Positions 1 to 24,902 of a DNA stretch of 64,000 nucleotides are shown piece by piece. A model generated the notes under the pieces. The model saw nothing but the letters and a program-made list of their open reading frames with translations, ran no database searches and was not told where the DNA came from. Numbering within the stretch: the stretch's first letter is position 1; the number at the start of each line of letters is the position of its first letter. The DNA comes from Myxococcales bacterium. GTDB lineage: Bacteria; Myxococcota_A; Polyangia; Polyangiales; DASUME01. Both the position numbers and the translations under genes were made by a program. The DNA lies in the NCBI GenBank assembly GCA_047601445.1, contig JASGJH010000001.1, positions 8,768,001-8,832,000 on the forward strand, given 5' to 3'.

Positions 1-170
1 AAGATCGCGCCCGCGAGGTCGCAACTACCCGAATCGAGAAAGAAAACGTTGTCAGGGGTTTGTTCAGGCGCGCCGTGGCCGCTAAAGTCGCGGCGCCTTT
101 TGGCCGAACCCTCTTCCAAAACGTGACGCGCGAGTGCCTCGCGCGAGCAAAACAAGGCTCCTCCATCAGC

Positions 171-974
171 ATGAAGTCGTCTCGCGGGAAGATCCTTCGC
201 TACACCATCGACCGCTTCACGGTCTTTTGGGTACTCCTCTTCTTCAGCGTCCAGCTGACGATCTGGTATTTCGCGCCGCCGTGGCTCGCCGCCGTGCTCG
301 CGTTGCCGCTGTACTTCGCGTCCATGATGTCGGCGTGCATCCACCACAATCACCAGCACGTGAATGTGTTCCGGAAGTCCTGGCTCAACCGCGTCTTCGA
401 GCTGCCGCTCACCATGCAGACGGGCGTCGGGCCGTACACCTGGGTGCTCCACCACAACCTTGGTCATCACCTGAACTATCTCGAGCAGCGTGACTACGAG
501 AAGGGTGTCGACGAGTCGCGCTGGCTGCGCAAGAGCGGCGACAAGATGGGGCGCCTCGAGTATTCGGCGTTCCTGTTCGTGAAGCACCACTTCGACGTGT
601 ACCAGGTCGGCAAGAAGCACCCGCGCATCTATCGCAACTACCTGCTCATGCGCATCCCGCTGTACACGGTGTTGGCGGTCTTGTTCTGGCTCAACCCGGC
701 CAACACGCTGATCCTGTTCCTGGCGTTGCCCCTGGCCACGCTGTTCCACACCTGTGCGGCCACCTACGAGCACCACTCGGGGCTCGAGACCAAGGATCAC
801 CTGCTGGCGAGCCGCAACAACACCAACAGGTTCTACAACATCCTCGCGCAGAACCTCGGCTATCACACGGCCCATCACACGCGTCCTGGCCTGCACTGGT
901 CCGAGCTGCCGGCCTTCCACGAGCAGATCGTGGCGAGCATTCCGGCCGGCCAAATCAAGACCACGTTCTTCTGA
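171..974 (+). CDS. Membrane fatty acid desaturase family protein
   Basis: His boxes HHNHQH, HHNLGHH and HTAHH with hydrophobic segments; ATG at 171 chosen within ORF 60-974. Confidence 0.85.
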   Translation: MKSSRGKILRYTIDRFTVFWVLLFFSVQLTIWYFAPPWLAAVLALPLYFASMMSACIHHNHQHVNVFRKSWLNRVFELPLTMQTGVGPYTWVLHHNLGHHLNYLEQRDYEKGVDESRWLRKSGDKMGRLEYSAFLFVKHHFDVYQVGKKHPRIYRNYLLMRIPLYTVLAVLFWLNPANTLILFLALPLATLFHTCAATYEHHSGLETKDHLLASRNNTNRFYNILAQNLGYHTAHHTRPGLHWSELPAFHEQIVASIPAGQIKTTFF

Positions 975-982
975 GTTCGCGG

Positions 983-1858
983 GTGGGCAGCGACCAGGCA
1001 GTCGAGCTCACGGAGCTCCTCGGACGTACGGTGACGCTCTACGTGCAGCGTCTCGGCGCGCCAGGGGCGTTTTGCTCCTTGTCACGCGAGGCCAAGCCGA
1101 GTGACCCGTCGGTGCTCTTGCCGCGCAACGAGCTCGACGAGTACGTCCATGAGGGCGACGCGCTGGAAGCCTTCGTGTACCTCGACTCCGAGGACCGTCC
1201 GGTGGCGACCCTGGCGGAGCCGAAGCTCGAGCTCGGGCAGGTGGCCTTCCTCGAGGTGCGCGACGTCAATCGCTTTGGGGCGTTCGTGGACTGGGGCCTG
1301 CCCAAGCAACTTTTGGTACCGTTCAAGGAGCAGATCCGGGAGCTGGCACCGGGGGACTGGGAGCCCATCGCGCTCGACGTCGATCGCACGGGGCGCCTGG
1401 TAGGCACGATGCGCGTGCGAGAGTTCCTGGAGGACGGCGGCGCGTTCGAGCGCAATGAGTGGGTGCCGGGCGAGGCCTGGCGCTTCGAGCCGGCGATCGG
1501 GCTGTTCGTGATCATCGAGCGGCGCTACGTGGGCTTGTTGCCTGCCCACGAGCGACACGGGTTGAAGCGCGGGGAGCAGGCGCAGTTTCGCGTCTCCCAC
1601 GTGCAGCCAGACGGCAAGGTCGAGCTCTCGCTGCGCGGCTTGGGGCATGAAGAGCGGGCGAGCGACGGCGAGAAGATTCTGGCCAAGCTCAGGGCCGGCA
1701 AGGCGCCCGGACTTTCCGATCGCACCAGTCCCGAGGAGATCGACGCCCTGTTCGGGCTCAGCAAGAAGGCCTTCAAGCGGGCGATGGGCGGGCTGCTCAA
1801 GGAGGGCAGTGTGACCTTCGATCGCGACGGCTGCTTCGTGGTGCGCGAGAAGAAGTGA
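983..1858 (+). CDS. CvfB-family S1-domain RNA-binding protein
   Basis: FVYLDSEDRPVAT, GAFVDWGLPKQLLVP and C-terminal winged helix FGLSKKAFKRAMGGL, typical of CvfB/YitL. Confidence 0.85.
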   Translation: MGSDQAVELTELLGRTVTLYVQRLGAPGAFCSLSREAKPSDPSVLLPRNELDEYVHEGDALEAFVYLDSEDRPVATLAEPKLELGQVAFLEVRDVNRFGAFVDWGLPKQLLVPFKEQIRELAPGDWEPIALDVDRTGRLVGTMRVREFLEDGGAFERNEWVPGEAWRFEPAIGLFVIIERRYVGLLPAHERHGLKRGEQAQFRVSHVQPDGKVELSLRGLGHEERASDGEKILAKLRAGKAPGLSDRTSPEEIDALFGLSKKAFKRAMGGLLKEGSVTFDRDGCFVVREKK

Positions 1859-1887: not shown

Positions 1888-3255
1888 TCACTCGAGAAGG
1901 CCGGCGTTCAGTGCGGCGGCGGCCCTGACCTGCGCCTCGAGGGTGGTGGTGCTGGCTTGGATGACGTTCGCCGATTCGTTGAAGGCATCGGGCGCACAGG
2001 TGCCGAGCTTGAACTTGGCGACGGGTGTGGTGGCGCTGCTCATGAAGGCGTCGAGGGCACCCTGGAAGGCACCTTTGGCGGCGGAGCCGAGGTCGGCACC
2101 CGCGTCGATGATGAGCTTGGATTTCTGAAAGGCGGCCAGGATGTTGGGTAGACGCGCCTTGAGCGCCTGCACGTAGTACTTCCCTTGCTCCTGGGCAGGT
2201 GCGTCGGCGCTTGCCATGAAGGTGATGTCGACCTCGAGCGACGGCGGGGTGCACTCGACCTTCAAGCTGGCGTCGGCCTTGGTCTGCGCGTCGCAGCTCG
2301 CGCTGGCGTTGCACCCAGCCATGGTCATGCAGGCCGGCGGCTTGAAGTCGCCTTCGCACTTGCCCTTGCACGTGACGAAAGCCATCGCGTTGCCTTCGCA
2401 CTTGGCGGTGGCGTCGGCCGTGCAGGAGACCATGGGTCCGGAGACCGTGCACGCGCCGCTGCAGGTGCCGCTGCAGTCCGCGCCGACGTCACTCTCAATC
2501 GTGCAGCTGCCCTGACACATGCCGGTGCACTTACCCTGGCAAGTGCCTCCGTTCTGGGTGCCTTCGCAACCGCCGGAGCAGGTGCCATCGCAGGTGCCGC
2601 CACACGCGGCGTTCACATTGCCGGTTAGTGTGCAGGTGCCGGTGCACTCGCCGGTGCAGGCCACGGAAGGTCCCTTGGTGGTACAGGACGCGGTCGCGCC
2701 TGCTTCGCACGTCACCATGGCGCTGGCTTCGACCTCACAGCCACCCTTGCACTCGAAGGAGGCCGTGCCGGGATCGCAGCTGGCGTCGACCTCACAGCCT
2801 GCTTGGGCCTTGCAGTAAGCGCTGGCTTCGAAGCTGGCGTGGGCGTCGACCTCGCACCTGGCGGGCTCGGCCTTGACCTTGATGCTGGCCTGGGCGCTCG
2901 TGGTGAGCTTGGCCTTGATGGCGCCAGCGAGGCCGCCGCCCGAGGTGAGGTCTGCGGCCGTGATGCCGAAATCCGTCTCGAGGCCCTTGAGTTCGGTATC
3001 GATGCGGCGGGTGAGCGCGTCCGCGGTGGTCTCGAAGTCGAGTGCGGCCTTGAAGAACGCGTCCACCGAAGCGACGCCAGTGATTCCAGCTTGTCCCTTC
3101 GCAACGCTGGCCTCGCACGAGAAATCGCTGCTGCAGTGATCCGTGATGACCTCGGGTGAGTCCCCGCATCCCGCGTGTGCGAAGATACTCAAGGCACCTG
3201 CCAAAACGTTCGCGCCGAAGAGCACACGAGCTCTGGAGTTCACTCGTCGAAACAT
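1888..3255 (-). CDS. Cys-rich lipoprotein, paralog 1 (palindromic cysteine ladder)
   Basis: 455 aa, lipobox-like AHAGC at Cys30, 30-Cys central block, GGAGG RBS upstream. Confidence 0.85.
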   Translation of the reverse strand: MFRRVNSRARVLFGANVLAGALSIFAHAGCGDSPEVITDHCSSDFSCEASVAKGQAGITGVASVDAFFKAALDFETTADALTRRIDTELKGLETDFGITAADLTSGGGLAGAIKAKLTTSAQASIKVKAEPARCEVDAHASFEASAYCKAQAGCEVDASCDPGTASFECKGGCEVEASAMVTCEAGATASCTTKGPSVACTGECTGTCTLTGNVNAACGGTCDGTCSGGCEGTQNGGTCQGKCTGMCQGSCTIESDVGADCSGTCSGACTVSGPMVSCTADATAKCEGNAMAFVTCKGKCEGDFKPPACMTMAGCNASASCDAQTKADASLKVECTPPSLEVDITFMASADAPAQEQGKYYVQALKARLPNILAAFQKSKLIIDAGADLGSAAKGAFQGALDAFMSSATTPVAKFKLGTCAPDAFNESANVIQASTTTLEAQVRAAAALNAGLLE

Positions 3256-3271
3256 CGCTCAGCCTCCAACC

Positions 3272-3309
3272 AAAAGCAAAACGGCCGGAGGCTTGTGCCG
3301 CCGGCCGTT
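3272..3309 (-). terminator. Intrinsic terminator downstream of paralog 2
   Basis: Minus strand AACGGCCGG-(CGGCACAAGCCT)-CCGGCCGTT followed by TTGCTTTT. Confidence 0.75.
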
Positions 3310-3333
3310 CATCCATGTGAATGCGAGGAGCGA

Positions 3334-4701
3334 TCAGCTGCCGATGAGTTCGGTGCTGAAGGCGCCAGCGGCCGTGACCTGAGCCTTCAGGTCGGCGGTG
3401 GCGCTCTGAATCTCGGTGGCCGACTCCTTGAAGGCGTCGGGGCCGCAGTGGATGAGCTTGTACTTGGCCACGGGGCTAACATCTCCCGACCCGAACGCGT
3501 CGATGGCACCCTGGAAGGCGCCGCTGGCGGTGGCGCCGAGGTCGGCACCGGCGTCGACGATGAGCTCGGACTTCTTGAGGGAGGCGAGGAGCTTGGGCAG
3601 ACGCGCCTTGAGCGCCTGCACGTAGAACTGCCCCTGCGCCTGTGCGGTGGCGTCGGCGCTCGCCATGAAGGCGATGTCGACCTCGATCGAGGGCGGCGTG
3701 CACTCGACCTTCAGGCTGGCGTCGGCCTTGGCCTGGGCGTCGCAGCTCGCGCTGGCGTCACACTTGGCCATGGCCATGCAGCTGGGCGGCTCGAAGTCGC
3801 CTTCGCACTTGCCCTTGCACATGACGGAAGCCATCGCGTTGCCTTCGCACTTGGCGGTGGCGTCGGCCGAGCAAGCGACCATGGGGCCGGAGACCGTGCA
3901 CTCACCGCTGCAGGTACCGTTGCACTGTGCTCCGACATCGCTGTCGATTTTGCAGCTGCCCTGACACATGCCGGTGCACTTGCCCTGGCAGGTGCCGCCC
4001 TTCTGGGTGCCTTCGCAGCCGCCGGAGCAGGTGCCGTCGCAGGTACCGCCGCAGGTGGCGTTCACGTTGCCGGAGAGCGTGCAGGTGCCTTTGCACTCGG
4101 CAGTGCAGGCCACGGAGGGGCCCTTGGTGGTGCACGAAGCGGTGGCGCCCGCTTCGCAGGTCACCATGGCGCTGGCTTCGACCTCGCAGCCACCCTTGCA
4201 CTCGAAGGAAGCCATGCCGGGATCGCAGCTGGCGTCGACCTGACAGTTTGCCTCGGCCTTGCACTGGGCGCTGGCTTCGAAGCTGGCGTGGGCGTCGACC
4301 TCGCACTTGGCGGGCTCGGCCTTCACCTTGATGCTGGCCTTGGCGCTCGCGGTGAGCTTGGCCTTGATGGCGCCGGCGAGGCCGCCACCGGTGGTGAGCT
4401 CGGCAGGCGTGATGCCGAAGTCAGCCTGCAGGCCCTTCAGCTCGGCGTCGATGCCACCGGCGAGCGTGTCGGCGGTGGTCTTGAAGTCGAGGGTCGCCTT
4501 GAAGAACGCGTCCACCGACGAGATGCCGGTCACCGCGAAGCCGCCCTTGGCGACGCTCTCGGTGCAGTCGAGACCGCAGATCTCCAGGCCCTTGGAGACC
4601 GGATTTTCATCGCAGCCGGGGGTCGTCAACAGGGCCGCGCCGGCCACCATGATGCCAGCGGCGCTGAGGGCACCGTAAAGTCGTGTCCTATCGAGCTTCA
4701 T
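3334..4701 (-). CDS. Cys-rich lipoprotein, paralog 2 (palindromic cysteine ladder)
   Basis: 455 aa, TTPGC at Cys30, colinear with both neighbours. Confidence 0.85.
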   Translation of the reverse strand: MKLDRTRLYGALSAAGIMVAGAALLTTPGCDENPVSKGLEICGLDCTESVAKGGFAVTGISSVDAFFKATLDFKTTADTLAGGIDAELKGLQADFGITPAELTTGGGLAGAIKAKLTASAKASIKVKAEPAKCEVDAHASFEASAQCKAEANCQVDASCDPGMASFECKGGCEVEASAMVTCEAGATASCTTKGPSVACTAECKGTCTLSGNVNATCGGTCDGTCSGGCEGTQKGGTCQGKCTGMCQGSCKIDSDVGAQCNGTCSGECTVSGPMVACSADATAKCEGNAMASVMCKGKCEGDFEPPSCMAMAKCDASASCDAQAKADASLKVECTPPSIEVDIAFMASADATAQAQGQFYVQALKARLPKLLASLKKSELIVDAGADLGATASGAFQGAIDAFGSGDVSPVAKYKLIHCGPDAFKESATEIQSATADLKAQVTAAGAFSTELIGS

Positions 4702-4927
4702 GAAATCACCTCTGCAGAATGTGGAAGTACGGTGGGCTTGTTCATTGCGGCGAAGCCGGTGTTGGCGCCGACCGCGGACGTGGGCACGGCCTGTCGCCGC
4801 ACATCATGGCCCCTTTGGGATGCTTGGGGCCGCATCATACACATCTCGGGCCGCGACGCAGCGCGGACGTGGGAGCTTCACCCGAGTCGGGGTGGTTCGC
4901 GCGCGCCCGCGTGAGTTCCCCTGAATT

Positions 4928-4966
4928 AAAAGCAAAACGGCCGGAGGCTTTGCGCCGCCGACCGTT
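4928..4966 (-). terminator. Intrinsic terminator downstream of paralog 3 (near-copy of 3272-3309)
   Basis: Same hairpin and U-tract; 4928-4993 nearly identical to 3272-3336. Confidence 0.75.
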
Positions 4967-4990
4967 CATCCGTGTGAATGCGAGGAGCGA

Positions 4991-6358
4991 TCAGCCGCCG
5001 ATGAGGTCGGTGCTGAAGGCGCCAGCGGCCGTGACCTGAGCCTGCAGGTCGGCGGTGGCGTTCTGGATCTCGGTGGCCGACTCCTTGAAGGCGTCGGGCG
5101 CGCAGGTGCCGAGCTTGAACTTGGCCACAGCGCTGACATCGCCGGAGGAGAAGGCGTCGAGGGCGCCCTGGAAGGCACCGCTGGCGGTGGCGCCGAGGTC
5201 GGCACCAGCGTCGATGATGAGCTCGGACTTCTTGAGGGCCGCGAGGAGCTTGGGCAGACGCGCCTTGAGCGACTGCACGTAGAACTCACCCTGGGCCTTG
5301 GCGGTGGCGTCGGCGCTCGCCATGAAGGCGATGTCGACCTCGAGCGAGGGCGGCGTGCACTCGACCTTCAGGCTGGCGTCGGCCTTGGCCTGGGCGTCGC
5401 AGCTCGCGCTGGCCTTGCAGTCGGCCATGGCCATGCAGCTGGGCGGCTCGAAGTCGCCTTCGCACTTGCCCTTGCACATGACGGAAGCCATCGCGTTGCC
5501 TTCGCACTTGGCGGTGGCGTCGGCCGTGCAGGAGACCATGGGTCCGGAGACCTTGCACTCGCCGCTGCAGCTGCCGTTGCACTGCGCGCCGACATCGCTG
5601 TCGATCTTGCAGGTGCCCTGACACATGCCGGTGCACTTGCCCTGGCAGGTGCCGCCGTTCTGGGTGCCTTCGCAGCCGCCGGAGCAGGTGCCTTCGCAGG
5701 TACCGCCGCAGGTGGCGTTCACGTTGCCCATGAGCGTGCAGGTGCCGGTGCACTCACCGGTGCAGGCCACGGACGGGCCCTTGGTGGTGCAGGAGGCGGT
5801 GGCGCCTGCTTCGCAGGTCACCATGGCGCTGGCCTCGACCTCGCAGCCACCCTTGCACTCGAAGGAAGCCATGCCGGGATCGCAGCTGGCGTCGACCTGA
5901 CAGTGTGCCTCGGCCTTGCACTGGGCGCTGGCCTCGAAGCTGGCGTGGGCGTCGACCTCGCACTTGGCGGGCTCGGCCTTGACCTTGATGCTGGCCTTGG
6001 CGCTCGCGGTGAGCTTGGCCTTGATGGCGCCGGCGAGGCCGCCACCGGTGGTGAGCTCGGCAGGCGTGATGCCGAAGTCAGCCTGCAGGCCCTTGAGCTC
6101 GGCGTCGATGCCGCCCGCGAGCGTGTCGGCGGTGGTCTTGAAGTCGACCGTGGCCTTGAAGAACGCGTCCACCGAGGAGATGCCCGTCACCGAGAACTGG
6201 CCCTTGGCCACGCTCTGGCTGCAGTCGAGACCGCACGCCTTGAGGCCCTGGTCGAGCGGCGAATCTTCGCAACCGGGCGCGGCCAGGAGGGTCACACCAC
6301 CGATGGTCAGGGCGACGGCGCTAAGAATGCCGCCAAGTTGTTTCGTACCTAGCTTCAT
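4991..6358 (-). CDS. Cys-rich lipoprotein, paralog 3 (palindromic cysteine ladder)
   Basis: 455 aa, AAPGC at Cys30, 34 Cys in total. Confidence 0.85.
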   Translation of the reverse strand: MKLGTKQLGGILSAVALTIGGVTLLAAPGCEDSPLDQGLKACGLDCSQSVAKGQFSVTGISSVDAFFKATVDFKTTADTLAGGIDAELKGLQADFGITPAELTTGGGLAGAIKAKLTASAKASIKVKAEPAKCEVDAHASFEASAQCKAEAHCQVDASCDPGMASFECKGGCEVEASAMVTCEAGATASCTTKGPSVACTGECTGTCTLMGNVNATCGGTCEGTCSGGCEGTQNGGTCQGKCTGMCQGTCKIDSDVGAQCNGSCSGECKVSGPMVSCTADATAKCEGNAMASVMCKGKCEGDFEPPSCMAMADCKASASCDAQAKADASLKVECTPPSLEVDIAFMASADATAKAQGEFYVQSLKARLPKLLAALKKSELIIDAGADLGATASGAFQGALDAFSSGDVSAVAKFKLGTCAPDAFKESATEIQNATADLQAQVTAAGAFSTDLIGG

Positions 6359-6749
6359 GTATCTCCCCTTGTCTTCTGCCTACGTTTGGAGGCGTTCCTT
6401 AAGTCGCGTCTGAACTCGAAGCAGCGTGTGCTTGGTTCTAGGTGTCAACGAGACCGAAGCCCCCGGTCGACCGGGCGCGACGGTAGCACGCAGCAATCAG
6501 CTTTCGTCGAGAAAAGAGCCAAAAAGAGCGGTGTGAGGAATGCGTTTCAAGCGCATGGCGCGCACATGCACGGCCGCGACGCGGGGCCTGCACCATCGCT
6601 TCACTGGGGACTGATTTAACCTTTGTCGCGTCAAGCTCGCCCCGAACACCACTCGCCGCGGCACAGATTCCCGAGGCCCCGTCCTTCTTACAGGCCATGC
6701 TGCAAAGCCGGTTCGTCATCTGCTGTCGGACAAGGTACGGTTGGCTCCC

Positions 6750-7007
6750 ATGATCGAGCCCAGTGAAATCGAACAACTGTTAAGGGCTGCTTTTCCAGAC
6801 GCCGCGGTGCTCGAGATCGAGGACCTGACGGGGACCAAGGATCACTACCAGGCCACCATCGTCAGCGGCAAATTTCAGGGCCTCACGCGCGTGGCCCAGC
6901 ACCAGGCCGTGTATCGCGCTCTCGGCGATCTCATGAAAGGCCCGATCCACGCGCTGGCGCTGAACACCTACACGCCCGAGGCCTACGCCAAAAAGCGCCT
7001 CACTTGA
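6750..7007 (+). CDS. bolA: BolA/IbaG family protein
   Basis: DHYQATIVSGKFQGLTRVAQHQAVY...IHALAL signature. Confidence 0.85.
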   Translation: MIEPSEIEQLLRAAFPDAAVLEIEDLTGTKDHYQATIVSGKFQGLTRVAQHQAVYRALGDLMKGPIHALALNTYTPEAYAKKRLT

Positions 7008-7035
7008 GCGCGGTGTCCGCGTTGACTCTAACGTC

Positions 7036-8151
7036 TCAGCGCTTTGACCGCGGGCGCACGCGATCCACGTTGCCACCGCCGCTGTCGCGCACCGAGTAGG
7101 AGCCGTCCACGGCGGGTTCCCTGAGCTTCTGCTCCGGCTGTTTGGCCTGGGCGTCGACTACCGTCTCGCGCGCGAAGCGCTGCGGGTCCTTGGGGGCGCT
7201 TGGTTGCGCGTTCAACTGGTGCAAAGTGACACGGTCGCGGCCCGCTCCCTTGCTCTCGTAGAGGGACGCATCGGCCCCGGCGACGAGATCGGCGGGAGAG
7301 CGGTACTGCAGTTCCTTCGTCAGGAGCGCCACGCCGATGCTGGCAGTGACTTGAAGGCTGCGTCCGGCCACCTGCACCGACGTCTGTGCGATGCGCGCGC
7401 GTAGACGCTCGGCCAGGACCTGAGCACCGCTCGCATCGCTGCCGCGGGCGATCACGGCGAACTCCTCGCCGCCATAGCGCGCCGCCACGTCCTCCGCGCG
7501 CAGGCTCTCCACCAGCACTTTCGCGGTGGCACCCAACACAGCGTCGCCGGCGGCGTGCCCGTAGCCGTCGTTGACCTTCTTGAAGTGATCGAGGTCGATC
7601 AGCATCACGGCCAGCACTCCACCGTGGCGCTTCACGAAGGCGTATTCGGCCTGCATGCGGTCGTCGAAATAGCCGCGATTGTAGAGGCCCGTCAGCCGAT
7701 CTCGCACCGCCGCTTCGTACATCGAGCGCGTGAGCTCCAGCTCCTCTGCATCGTGCAAAGCAAAGCGCAACACCACGCTGCCGAGCGTGATGAGCTCTCC
7801 GCTCTTGAGGCGATGGCGCGCGGTCAGTCGCTGGCCCTCCACGAAGGTGCCATTGCGGCTCTCGAGATCGGTGACCGCGAGTGTGTCGCCCTCGCGATCG
7901 AAGCGTGCGTGCGTGCGCGAGAGGCTGGGATCCTCGATGCGCAAATCGGCCTCGAGGCCACGCCCGATCACCGCGTGCGAGCCCTCCACCGTGAGCACTT
8001 CGCCGGCGTGGGGACCCTTCACCACCAGGAGTGCGAGCGCGCTGCGCTTGGAGCGGGCACCGATCGGTACGGTGATCTCCTGCGTTACGTCATCGCTGCT
8101 GGTCCGGGAACTTCGCCCCGACAAGGTCTCGATCACTTTCTGCGATCGCAT
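7036..8151 (-). CDS. FHA-domain diguanylate cyclase
   Basis: FHA (IGRG...SRTH...SRNGT) plus DRLTGLYNR, DLDHFKKVND, RAED I-site and GGEEF. Confidence 0.92.
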   Translation of the reverse strand: MRSQKVIETLSGRSSRTSSDDVTQEITVPIGARSKRSALALLVVKGPHAGEVLTVEGSHAVIGRGLEADLRIEDPSLSRTHARFDREGDTLAVTDLESRNGTFVEGQRLTARHRLKSGELITLGSVVLRFALHDAEELELTRSMYEAAVRDRLTGLYNRGYFDDRMQAEYAFVKRHGGVLAVMLIDLDHFKKVNDGYGHAAGDAVLGATAKVLVESLRAEDVAARYGGEEFAVIARGSDASGAQVLAERLRARIAQTSVQVAGRSLQVTASIGVALLTKELQYRSPADLVAGADASLYESKGAGRDRVTLHQLNAQPSAPKDPQRFARETVVDAQAKQPEQKLREPAVDGSYSVRDSGGGNVDRVRPRSKR

Positions 8152-8223
8152 CGTCGGCGCACACACCCGTCATGGACTGACGGCCGTGCCCGGACCCCCC
8201 GCGGTCGCACGGGGACTACTCTA

Positions 8224-22748: not shown

Positions 22749-22895
22749 CCCGTCTCGGCCTTCCCGAGGCTCAAAAACAAGCGCAAACAAAATGGCCTCT
22801 TCAAGGATGAATCTTTGGAGGGTTATCCTGCCTTTTCCCGTCGTGCTTTGCTGGCGGGCGGACCCGCCCGCTTCGACCGAGATCCCGGAGTTGCC

Positions 22896-24902
22896 ATGAA
22901 CACGTCGCCCAACCGCGCCATCTCCAACGGTGCATTTCAGGCCTTCGGACGCAGCTGGGCGCGCTCGCTATTGCTAGGCATCTGTCTGCTCGCTGCCTGT
23001 TCGGGCAAGGAACAGAAAGGTGCTCAGCATGGCAACGGCGATGCAGGCGCGCTGACCGGCAACGATGGCGGCGGGGACGGCGATGGCAACGGCGACGGTG
23101 ATGGAGACGGCCAGGGCGATGGCGACGGAACCGGCGACGGTGACGCAGGCTCGGGCCACAAGGGCCCCATGTCGTGTTCACCCATCACGTGCGAAGCCAA
23201 GGGCTATTCGTGCGGCCTGGTCGAAGATGGTTGTGGCGGCGTGTTGCCCTGCGGCCCCTGCAAGGACAACAAGGTCTGTTCGCCCGATACCCATCAGTGC
23301 GTGGAGCCGGTTTCGCTCTGCATGATGCGCGAGTGCGGCGCCGCCATCGACGCCTGCAACGATCCCGTCGCCTGCGGCGGCTCCTGCGGGGCGGGCGAGA
23401 TCTGCAAGGGCGGCGAGTGTCAGGCCTGCGTTCCACGTGAGTGCAACAAGGACGGTCTATGCGGCGACGTGTCCGACGGTTGCGGCGCCACGCTGCACTG
23501 TCCTGGCTGCGGCGACGGAATGGCCTGCGATCGAATCATTCATCAGTGCGCCGCCTGCGAGCCCACCACCTGTCTCGGCGAGGGTGTCGAGTGCGGCACC
23601 ATTAGCGACGGCTGCGGCAAGACCCTGGATTGCAAGGCCTGCACTGCCGACAAGATGTGCTTGAGCGGCAAGTGCGTGCCCAAGGCGCTTCCGGCCGAGT
23701 GCACCGCGCAAGGCGCCAACTGCGGCGACATCCTCCATGCCTGCACGGGCGCCAAGCTCAACTGCGGCAAGTGCGTGGAAGGCGAGATCTGCTCGAACAA
23801 CGTGTGCAAGAGCTGCGTGCCCACCAGCTGCGACGAGAAGAGCGCGGTGTGCGGCGACATCGACGATGGCTGCGGAGGCAAGCTGCACTGCGGTGACTGC
23901 GATGATGCCAAGGACGAGGTGTGCAACCGCGGCAGTTGCTGCGTGCCCAAGACCTGCGAGCAGCTCGGCAAGAACTGCGGCGACAACGTCGATGACGGCT
24001 GCGGCGGCAAACTGCACTGCGGCGACTGCGACCCGCTGAAGAACCAGTTCTGCGGCTACAAGACCTCACCCAACGTCTGCGGCACTTGCATCCCCACCAC
24101 CACCTGCGCCGACGCGGGCGAGCAGTGCGGCCGGCTCTTCGACGGCTGCAAGGACGTCAATTGCGGCGACTGCGACGCCGGTGAGGGATGCGACAATGGT
24201 GGAACAGCCAACATCTGCGTGCAGTGCCCCACCTGCGCGTCAATCGCCGCGGACAACGGCGGCAAGCAGGCCTGTGGTCCTCACAAGGGCGTTTGCGGCG
24301 ACCTGAACTGCGGCGATTGCTTGGCCTCCAATGAGAGGTGCGGTGCCGGTGGAACCGCTGGTATCTGCGACGTTTGCGTGCCCGACCCCAACGCCTGCGC
24401 TGGCAAGAACTGCGGCACGGTCTGGAACGGCTGCGACAACGTGACCTGCTCGCCTAACAGCTGCGGCGCGGGCGAGACCTGTGGCGCCAATGGAGTCGCC
24501 AACGTGTGCGGCGTGTGCTCGCCCACCACCAGCTGCCAGGCCCAGGGTAAGACCTGCGGCACGGTCTGGAACGGCTGCGTGAACGAGCAGTGTGCCGGCT
24601 GCAAGGCGGGCGAGAAGTGCATTGCGAACGGCACCCAGTGCTGCAAGCCCGACAGTTGCTCTGCTCACGCCGGTCAGTGCGGAGACATCGACGATGGTTG
24701 CGGTGGCACCTTGCACTGCGGCTGCCCGTCGCAGTCCCAGAGCTGCTTCAACGGTAGCTGCTGCGTGCGCCGCACCTGCCAGGAGATTGCCAACCAGATC
24801 GGCGGCAACGATCCCGTGGTCGGCTGTGTGGACGGCGACCAGCAGAACTTCATCGAGTGCGGCGAGATCGTGCAGTGCGAGTTGTGCCTCGATCTCCAGT
24901 GA
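22896..24902 (+). CDS. Cys-rich repeat lipoprotein (C.P.TC...CG...DGCG repeats) with GD linker
   Basis: LAAC lipobox, GDGDGNGDGD tract, more than 10 Cys-rich repeats. Confidence 0.8.
   Translation: MNTSPNRAISNGAFQAFGRSWARSLLLGICLLAACSGKEQKGAQHGNGDAGALTGNDGGGDGDGNGDGDGDGQGDGDGTGDGDAGSGHKGPMSCSPITCEAKGYSCGLVEDGCGGVLPCGPCKDNKVCSPDTHQCVEPVSLCMMRECGAAIDACNDPVACGGSCGAGEICKGGECQACVPRECNKDGLCGDVSDGCGATLHCPGCGDGMACDRIIHQCAACEPTTCLGEGVECGTISDGCGKTLDCKACTADKMCLSGKCVPKALPAECTAQGANCGDILHACTGAKLNCGKCVEGEICSNNVCKSCVPTSCDEKSAVCGDIDDGCGGKLHCGDCDDAKDEVCNRGSCCVPKTCEQLGKNCGDNVDDGCGGKLHCGDCDPLKNQFCGYKTSPNVCGTCIPTTTCADAGEQCGRLFDGCKDVNCGDCDAGEGCDNGGTANICVQCPTCASIAADNGGKQACGPHKGVCGDLNCGDCLASNERCGAGGTAGICDVCVPDPNACAGKNCGTVWNGCDNVTCSPNSCGAGETCGANGVANVCGVCSPTTSCQAQGKTCGTVWNGCVNEQCAGCKAGEKCIANGTQCCKPDSCSAHAGQCGDIDDGCGGTLHCGCPSQSQSCFNGSCCVRRTCQEIANQIGGNDPVVGCVDGDQQNFIECGEIVQCELCLDLQ

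Follow-up and report, generated by a model that had tools for sequence, protein, structure and literature searches.

How would a protein chain fold if its 30 central cysteines were spaced identically when counted from either end, and what might it do for the cell that carries it? The question is raised by three tandem lipoprotein genes at positions 1888–6358 of a 64,000-nt stretch of DNA from a Myxococcales bacterium (GenBank assembly GCA_047601445.1, contig JASGJH010000001.1, positions 8,768,001–8,832,000 of the forward strand), the whole of which we call the window. The host genome is a single contig of 9.5 Mb with 66% GC. The three open reading frames (ORFs), all on the minus strand and 455 codons long, share 73–87% pairwise identity, and each product contains 34 cysteines, 30 of which lie centrally in what we term the ladder. 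The genes and their parts, with the evidence for each, are as follows:

4991–6358, minus strand: paralog 3 (P0001), a 455-a.a lipoprotein and the first gene of the array (ORF, AlphaFold2 (AF2) model)
6269–6358, minus strand: signal peptide of paralog 3, with a lipobox-like Cys30 (sequence)
5963–6268, minus strand: predicted N-terminal half of the helical base of paralog 3, with the invariant Cys46 and the spare Cys42 (nt 6233–6235) (model, homologs)
5357–5962, minus strand: ladder of paralog 3, Cys133–Cys334, with a predicted helical pair at the foot, a DPG/PP hinge, a wound CxGxC part, and the tip (spacers, AF2, couplings)
5648–5671, minus strand: tip loop of paralog 3, EGTQNGGT, with a two-residue turn at Gly-Gly in the model that gives a hydrogen-bond register of +4 (sequence, AF2)
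4994–5356, minus strand: predicted C-terminal half of the helical base of paralog 3, two long helices with the invariant Cys419 (nt 5102–5104) (model, homologs)
3334–4701, minus strand: paralog 2, 455 a.a, 87% identical to paralog 3 (ORF)
3700–4305, minus strand: ladder of paralog 2, 30 cysteines, Cys133–334 (spacers)
1888–3255, minus strand: paralog 1, 455 a.a, 73–75% identical to paralogs 2 and 3 (ORF)
2251–2856, minus strand: ladder of paralog 1, 30 cysteines, Cys134–335 (spacers)

Mirrored spacing and probable pairing of the cysteines

In all three paralogs, the residues between successive ladder cysteines number 13,5,5,8,3,9,7,8,3,3,9,3,3,3,[8],3,3,3,9,3,3,8,7,9,3,8,5,5,13, a mirror centered on EGTQ(N/K)GGT with a radius of 14 in each. 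A preliminary description, made from the sequence alone, had reported these positions and spacers along with Pro/Gly residues in the eight-residue spacers and mirrored flanks, and all of this proved correct. Shuffling the same spacers 200,000 times gave a maximum radius of 8, attained six times. Among the genome's 751 cysteine-rich ORFs with high GC at the third codon position (GC3), the four best mirrors (radii 14, 14, 14, and 13) were the window trio and a fourth paralog, followed by plain periodic repeats with a radius of 10. The mirror is real and far beyond chance. An origin by DNA inversion was considered and rejected, the reverse and reverse-complement matches between arms having E values of 0.24 or worse.

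The preliminary description had further proposed that Cys i pairs with Cys 31-i, expecting indels to fall symmetrically in both arms of homologs and the coevolution map to show an anti-diagonal. From 691 family matches, we retained 604 distinct complete ladders (the 87 excluded were fragments, duplicates, or without a complete ladder), which span 11–19 rungs and 77–117 residues per arm and whose outermost spacer is equal in both arms by definition. They form two subfamilies: A, in which the ladder ends with 13-residue spacers and which includes the window genes, and B, in which it ends with 9,3. The cysteine count is even in 598/604 ladders (A, 452/458; B, 146/146), and 488 are perfect mirrors (A, 352, with 45 arm types; B, 136, with 10 arm types). 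An arm-swap control returned a mean of 51 perfect mirrors in A (maximum 69) and of 91 in B (maximum 99), the control being weak for B, with 115 of its 146 ladders having a single arm type. On a tree of 440 subfamily A proteins built from the base only, with the ladder left out, 131 left and 134 right spacer changes shared a branch 99 times, against 20 expected. A seven-residue spacer represents a lost rung, mostly through Ala/Val substitution on both arms; in 390 of 427 ladders, the rungs that are missing occupy equal positions from the tip on the two arms (15 patterns, of which two account for 330), and the other 37 show different patterns. Shifted pairing, with cross-strand bonds of the Cys200–Cys213 type prompted by the +4 register described below, was rejected, as it occurred in none of the 427. 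In mean-field couplings (444 sequences; effective number of sequences, Neff, 336), 41 of the top 50 ladder pairs fell within 8 of the mirror (background 8.7%), which is the expected anti-diagonal. Because of the symmetric arm changes, the loss of rungs at the same index, and the near-mirror couplings, we strongly infer that Cys i would be paired with Cys 31-i; the expected symmetric indels were largely borne out.

The rung number is odd in 363 ladders and even in 235, and the unit is therefore a cysteine pair, as in a disulfide, and not a four-cysteine metal site. A VKOR-DsbA fusion is encoded in 14/133 family loci, many of which are short contigs; 13 of these genes are immediate, same-strand neighbors of a family gene, with those in L024 and L028 placed between two paralogs:

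L013:10737–11807, L015, L019, L024, L028, L032, L035: VKOR-DsbA fusion gene next to or between family genes (gene-neighbor scan)
L038, L095, L103, L104, L123, L126: VKOR-DsbA fusion gene next to or between family genes (gene-neighbor scan)

This adjacency favors disulfides, and the fusion possibly acts in these loci as a dedicated oxidase. Given this neighbor and the symmetric evolution of the pairs, the disulfides claimed in the preliminary description are very probable.

Other mirrored or cysteine-rich proteins were seen in the same genome. The fourth paralog (G000:C1:2583628-2585037, minus strand; L141) is unlinked to the array and 31% identical, with a radius of 13, 14 rungs, and a 16-residue tip loop, and it lacks the spare Cys42. 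A different exported cysteine-rich protein (G000:C1:7113475-7114419, minus strand; L139:1476-2420), without an NCBIfam match, carries a CxxxC ladder that is nearly a mirror and has no Gly (7,3,8,7,3,7,3,3,3,10,3,3,3 on one side of the center and 3,3,3,11,3,3,3,7,3,7,7,3,8 on the other) and a C-terminal hydrophobic-plus-basic tail, and is perhaps a helical counterpart. Three lipoprotein paralogs (G000:C1:3999258-4000121, 7189687-7190472, and 3023134-3024519) share an N-terminal motif and contain CxxxC-x5 tandem repeats, the symmetry of which is due to periodicity only.

Predicted fold of the ladder, base, and dimer

In what follows, mature numbers are obtained by subtracting 29 from the full numbering; the numbers of mirror partners add up to 409, and an offset d means i+j = 409+d. 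AF2 modeled the mature protein with a predicted local distance difference test score (pLDDT) of 86 and a predicted template modeling score (pTM) of 0.74 (81 and 0.65, respectively, for the stalk alone), the base forming a bundle of helices 32–65, 322–376, and 391–424 (mature). Together with a lipobox-like cysteine in 198/212 full-length homologs (by a simple pattern test, not a trained predictor), this supports the helical, lipid-anchored base that had been claimed, and the model and the anti-diagonal couplings likewise support the out-and-back chain. Cys46 and Cys419 (full numbering) are invariant, and Cys419 is the likely partner of Cys46. Cys42 is an extra cysteine (246/255), owing to which the count of non-lipobox cysteines is odd in 275/307 A proteins; it is even in 107/111 B proteins.

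The preliminary description had pictured a straight hairpin, all beta, that measures roughly 30 nm if fully extended and carries cross-strand disulfides, and this part was not upheld. Both 13-residue spacers are largely helical in the AF2 model (mature 108–121 and 288–301), and the ladder is therefore not all beta. Further out, Gly occupies the middle position of CxxxC in 97% and 95% of the spacers in the two arms (1771 spacers per arm), and the CxGxC couplings peak at +4 (S197-M216, G199-T214, T195-Q218, T175-E238, and K140-D273), with a second peak at −6 to −9 (E193-Q210, N185-Q218, S160-G243, and T162-E238). In four gap-free subgroups, the distal +4 couplings had mean z scores of 2.4, 3.1, 1.6, and 2.0, those at −6 to −10 reached 2.8, 1.9, 2.1, and 1.6, and offset 0, the register of the rungs, gave only 0.6–1.2. 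The tip of the model turns at Gly206-Gly207 (mature), setting the register at +4, while the AF2 strand boundaries fit best at −6 (0.95/0.84); +4 with −6 covers every strand residue, and register 0 only 0.67/0.62. Each arm would be paired on both edges, ten residues apart, which implies a two-start helix with offset 0 lying across the axis where the inward cysteines meet. A toy model of C-alpha atoms that repeats every four residues was feasible at 0.74–1.03 Å per residue with Cys innermost, and the +4 register plus the rung, without the second register, allowed a rise of up to 2.86 Å per residue. With 69 residues per arm, the rod would measure ~5–7 nm when wound along its whole length, with an upper limit of 20 nm, and 30 nm is therefore unsupported. 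We regard two-start winding, with a shorter wound rod in place of the straight hairpin, as probable on these models, and the rod would be ~5–10 nm long.

The preliminary description had also suggested self-association. Folding two copies with ESMFold2 gave scores of 0.50, 0.58, and 0.02 (median 0.50, against 0.09 for the best of three controls), with contact agreement of at least 23% and pLDDT of at least 73; the mark for a dimer was reached by 20/30 proteins solved as pairs and 1/23 solved as single chains, counts that are only rough for the alignment used. The dimer model is symmetric about mature residues 35, 39, and 307, and the couplings T47-E304, A40-L301, and S234-K348 map onto its surface. 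Residues 164–179 and 226–238 contact the partner helix 323–348, as do residues 301–308 (mature); the middle rungs therefore lie near the foot in this model, with the chain folded back, and the placement of rungs 7–12 near the base of the stalk again conflicts with a straight hairpin. Cys42 (mature residues 13–14) is inside the interface, making an inter-chain Cys42 bond a natural guess. Models and statistics thus lend self-association support, and tip the balance somewhat towards a homodimer.

Competing explanations and nearest known structures

The reading that we favor, if by a modest measure, is that of exported, lipidated envelope proteins bearing a wound rod with disulfide rungs. Such a Polyangia-specific protein, lipidated at its N-terminus, would have two parts: a three-helix base, closed near the lipid anchor by a Cys46–Cys419 bond, and, inserted into it, a chain that runs out and returns with each Cys i bonded to Cys 31-i. 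At its foot, both arms would be helical and antiparallel as far as the DPG/PP hinge, where they turn; past the hinge, the (Cys-x-Gly-x)n segments would be coiled about one another in a two-start antiparallel beta-helix. Each would be hydrogen-bonded to the other on both edges (+4 and ~−6), with Gly providing bends and space, and the S-S rungs would form a stack along the axis, as in a twisted ladder. The product would be a short, rigid, acidic rod of ~5–10 nm with a variable tip loop, its length evolving rung by rung (11–19), and parallel homodimers are probable, possibly locked by the spare Cys42.

Several observations weigh against this reading. On the tree, 32 changes were left-only and 35 right-only, and 100/452 subfamily A ladders have at least one unequal spacer. 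The second coupling stripe is broad (−6 to −10) and possibly reflects intermolecular contacts, +4 was not the top offset in one of the four subgroups, and a cruder two-residue toy model was slightly strained, with a −6 contact residual of 0.9–1.3. The evidence for the winding consists of DSSP boundaries, couplings of modest strength (Neff 336; subgroups 34–78), and the toy model, of which the first two derive from the same alignments. One of the three dimer runs scored 0.02, and the window has no VKOR-DsbA neighbor, the genome's single VKOR being unlinked.

The same symmetry would fit the geometry of the preliminary description, a long, open, twisted two-stranded ribbon of up to ~20–30 nm with i to 31-i rungs, the second stripe then arising from ribbons packed side by side in a fiber, sheet, or tube, such as a surface layer (S-layer), coat, or sporangiole wall. 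Small hydrophobic residues do alternate along the long spacers, the toy model without a second register permits 2.86 Å per residue (~20 nm), the self-pair model passed, and the alternating Ser/Val C-terminal tail of subfamily B could polymerize; however, the outer spacers are helical in AF2, the strands fit +4/−6 within a single chain, and residues 164–179, 226–238, and 301–308 touch one base helix in the dimer model, which is impossible for a straight rod, so that we hold the ribbon to be rather unlikely. A periplasm-facing envelope strut or ruler, hidden from the cell surface and with the rung number setting the distance from the outer membrane to an inner layer or partner, would suit a lipoprotein with stepwise length changes that is present in 17/23 genomes of one bacterial family and lies in syntenic housekeeping neighborhoods. 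It is also unlikely, since tandem copies, tip loops of 3–17 residues, and rung numbers differing within a locus suit a repertoire better, and the occurrence in other families is patchy (3/18).

Metal binding by axial thiols (Zn, Cu, Cd, or Fe-S), as a nested zinc hairpin or metal-thiolate wire without disulfides, has a precedent in the DnaJ-type nested zinc hairpin. The mirrored cysteines would be compatible with nested metal sites, as would the acidity of the ladder (median net charge −16; 10–13 basic and 23–25 acidic residues in a 202-residue ladder), but the sole support comes from neighbors, namely the Fe-S carrier Mrp/ApbC in 24 searched loci and BolA beside the window array. Mrp belongs to a housekeeping block, rungs are gained and lost singly (the odd and even counts above), lost rungs turn into Ala/Val pairs, export uses a lipoprotein-type signal, and a VKOR-DsbA gene is adjacent in 13 loci, all of which makes a metal ladder very unlikely. 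A pore-forming or prey-attack protein, with a ClyA/AhlB-like helical base and the ladder as targeting arm, is very unlikely; no hydrophobic membrane-inserting segment of the ClyA type was found, the sampled 19-residue hydropathy being at most 0.71 beyond the signal peptide. Least credible of all is that a known repeat accounts for the spacing, whether a bactofilin-like single-chain beta-helix, a radical-SAM target repeat, or local furin/EGF-type disulfides. Pfam Bactofilin was matched at E 7e-5, and 3 of 8 family proteins scanned pass the TIGR04114 cut-off, but the Bactofilin match stays below its own, both track the hydrophobic-x-Gly-x period, and there is no consistent within-arm i,i+k coupling stripe; local disulfides would not account for coupled change in arms 10–200 residues apart. 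This explanation is already largely refuted.

The similarity to bactofilins and to the Cys-stapled insect antifreeze beta-helices lies in the hydrophobic-x-Gly-x period, inward-pointing residues, and Gly at bends. Those proteins are single-start parallel solenoids without mirror symmetry, and bactofilins are cytoplasmic, whereas the family has a signal peptide and a lipobox-like cysteine by the simple pattern test, as bacterial lipoproteins do. The three paralogs scored 23.4, 15.5, and 18.9 bits against the Bactofilin (PF04519) gathering score of 27.9 (L009, 25.4), and no bactofilin-type fold was among the structure-search matches listed. The tSAM_targ_Cxxx repeat (TIGR04114/PF27846) shares the CxxxC runs; it did not match the three window proteins, and 3/7 homologs reached the cut-off over 14–15 residues, a 15-residue compositional similarity. 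No radical-SAM gene lies beside the window array or was present among 16 neighbor proteins scanned (conserved clusters only). A PDB sequence search returned five matches (best E 0.33), and Foldseek found none in the PDB at E 0.001 or better with the full model or the stalk. A BFVD match at E 1e-4 was rejected (template modeling (TM) score 0.10, root-mean-square deviation 40), and the ESM Atlas gave only clusters of the family itself, with no named look-alike left after setting aside PF27846 and PF04519. No known repeat fold was thus found to explain the spacing, and the architecture was not found among solved structures.

The nearest precedents for the rungs are the theta-defensin cystine ladder and the cystine-ladder-like loop of algal HAP2, which have three rungs in 18–37 residues (PMC6327110). 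In both, as would hold for the Polyangia ladder, the disulfide rungs are nested and parallel and bridge a chain that runs out and returns, and evolutionary inference indicates the same Cys i with Cys n+1-i pairing. The Polyangia ladder differs in having 11–19 rungs in 77–117 residues per arm, no sequence relation, rungs apparently off the hydrogen-bond register, and an insertion in the helical bundle of a lipoprotein; it is also a 202-residue acidic ladder and not a short cationic peptide. For the wound rod, a parallel is the gp37 needle of phage T4, which contains axial iron sites. The needle is elongated, six-stranded, and antiparallel, ending in a receptor-binding domain (PMC7291167). The two would have in common out-and-back chains wound thin, axial cross-links, and a recognition tip; gp37 is a phage trimer with metal-His sites, whereas the Polyangia rod would be a bacterial lipoprotein consisting of a single chain and bearing S-S rungs. 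The structure and sequence searches gave no match to gp37, and no viral locus of the family was found.

Whether this amounts to a new fold, a single-chain antiparallel two-start beta-helix with axial disulfide rungs and a length set genetically rung by rung, present on Polyangia cells as disulfide-linked dimers or larger polymers and served in some lineages by its own VKOR-DsbA, seems to us evenly poised. If so, it would embody a design rule for which solved structures offer no example, in which mirror spacing of a Cys-x-Gly-x chain yields a rigid covalent rod lengthened by one rung per arm; the architecture would be simple and testable and would lend itself to scaffolds or rulers. A folding question would follow, namely how 15 nested disulfides form in order in the cell. 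As to its role, the anatomy leads us to a tentative guess of a surface element, resistant to proteases and serving recognition or structure, that presents the tip and is kept as small tandem repertoires.

Distribution of the family and setting of the array

Sequence searches at E 0.001 returned 732, 1262, and 1611 proteins (the best 120 of each examined) and 933 representatives (the best 150 examined), with homologs from Polyangiales and Nannocystales. Of 301 genomes sampled across the phylum, 30 matched at E 1e-20, all from the same order or class, and the family is restricted to class Polyangia among the genomes sampled. Viral contigs yielded 26 pattern matches and no relatives. Subfamilies A and B are homologous over their full length (HHalign 99.8%) and stand in tandem at L126. 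Subfamily B is present in cultured Sorangium, Chondromyces, and Polyangium, and the Ser/Val tail marks 87/119 of its members, against 2/333 in A. Two to four copies occur in 40/133 family loci, and the rung number varies between paralogs of one locus. The tip loop is 8 a.a in 225/327 subfamily A proteins, with Gly at −2 in 268/327.

Many homologs carry database labels such as 'modification target Cys-rich repeat protein' or 'Keratin associated protein'. No paper describing the family was found in titles and abstract openings (subscription journals and supplements lay outside this scope), and the family is uncharacterized, in line with the earlier statement that no characterized family is known to have this architecture. 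The favored reading, if true, would give a handle on the uncharacterized surface of Sorangium, Chondromyces, Polyangium, Nannocystis, and Enhygromyxa, where hundreds of family proteins are now labeled hypothetical, keratin-associated, bactofilin, or radical-SAM target.

Some members depart from the common layout. P0239 (831 a.a) contains the base-plus-ladder unit twice, complete both times, and in one of the two the ladder runs through 13 CxxxC rungs per arm without interruption. P0183, P0185, P0228, P0244, P0251, and P0264 carry an N-terminal stretch of ~110–170 additional residues that separates the lipid anchor from the base, without a Pfam match in P0185 and P0228. At L045:7562-10023, in one metagenome-assembled genome, family genes are split into several short frames, through frameshifts or assembly errors. 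A second, very cysteine-rich lipoprotein is encoded upstream of A and B genes at L007:6364-7815 and 10 other loci, often with Mrp/ApbC downstream.

Within the window, paralogs 2 and 3 share identical DNA runs of up to 113 nt, and a hairpin appears to have been copied along with the gene:

4932–4953, minus strand: hairpin resembling an intrinsic terminator, 3′ of paralog 3 (terminator scan)
3276–3298, minus strand: near-identical copy of the hairpin and 3′ region, 3′ of paralog 2 (sequence)

The terminator scan gave two sites against 3.3 expected and is no evidence taken alone; a promoter scan found none, and a search for sequencing runs listed none. The flanks of the array (window 60–1858 and 6741–8166) are ordinary, encoding a fatty-acid desaturase, a CvfB-like S1 protein, BolA, and an FHA-GGDEF diguanylate cyclase. 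Further along (window 22749–24899, plus strand), an open frame of 717 a.a without an NCBIfam match starts like a signal peptide and contains 102 cysteines in short repeats.

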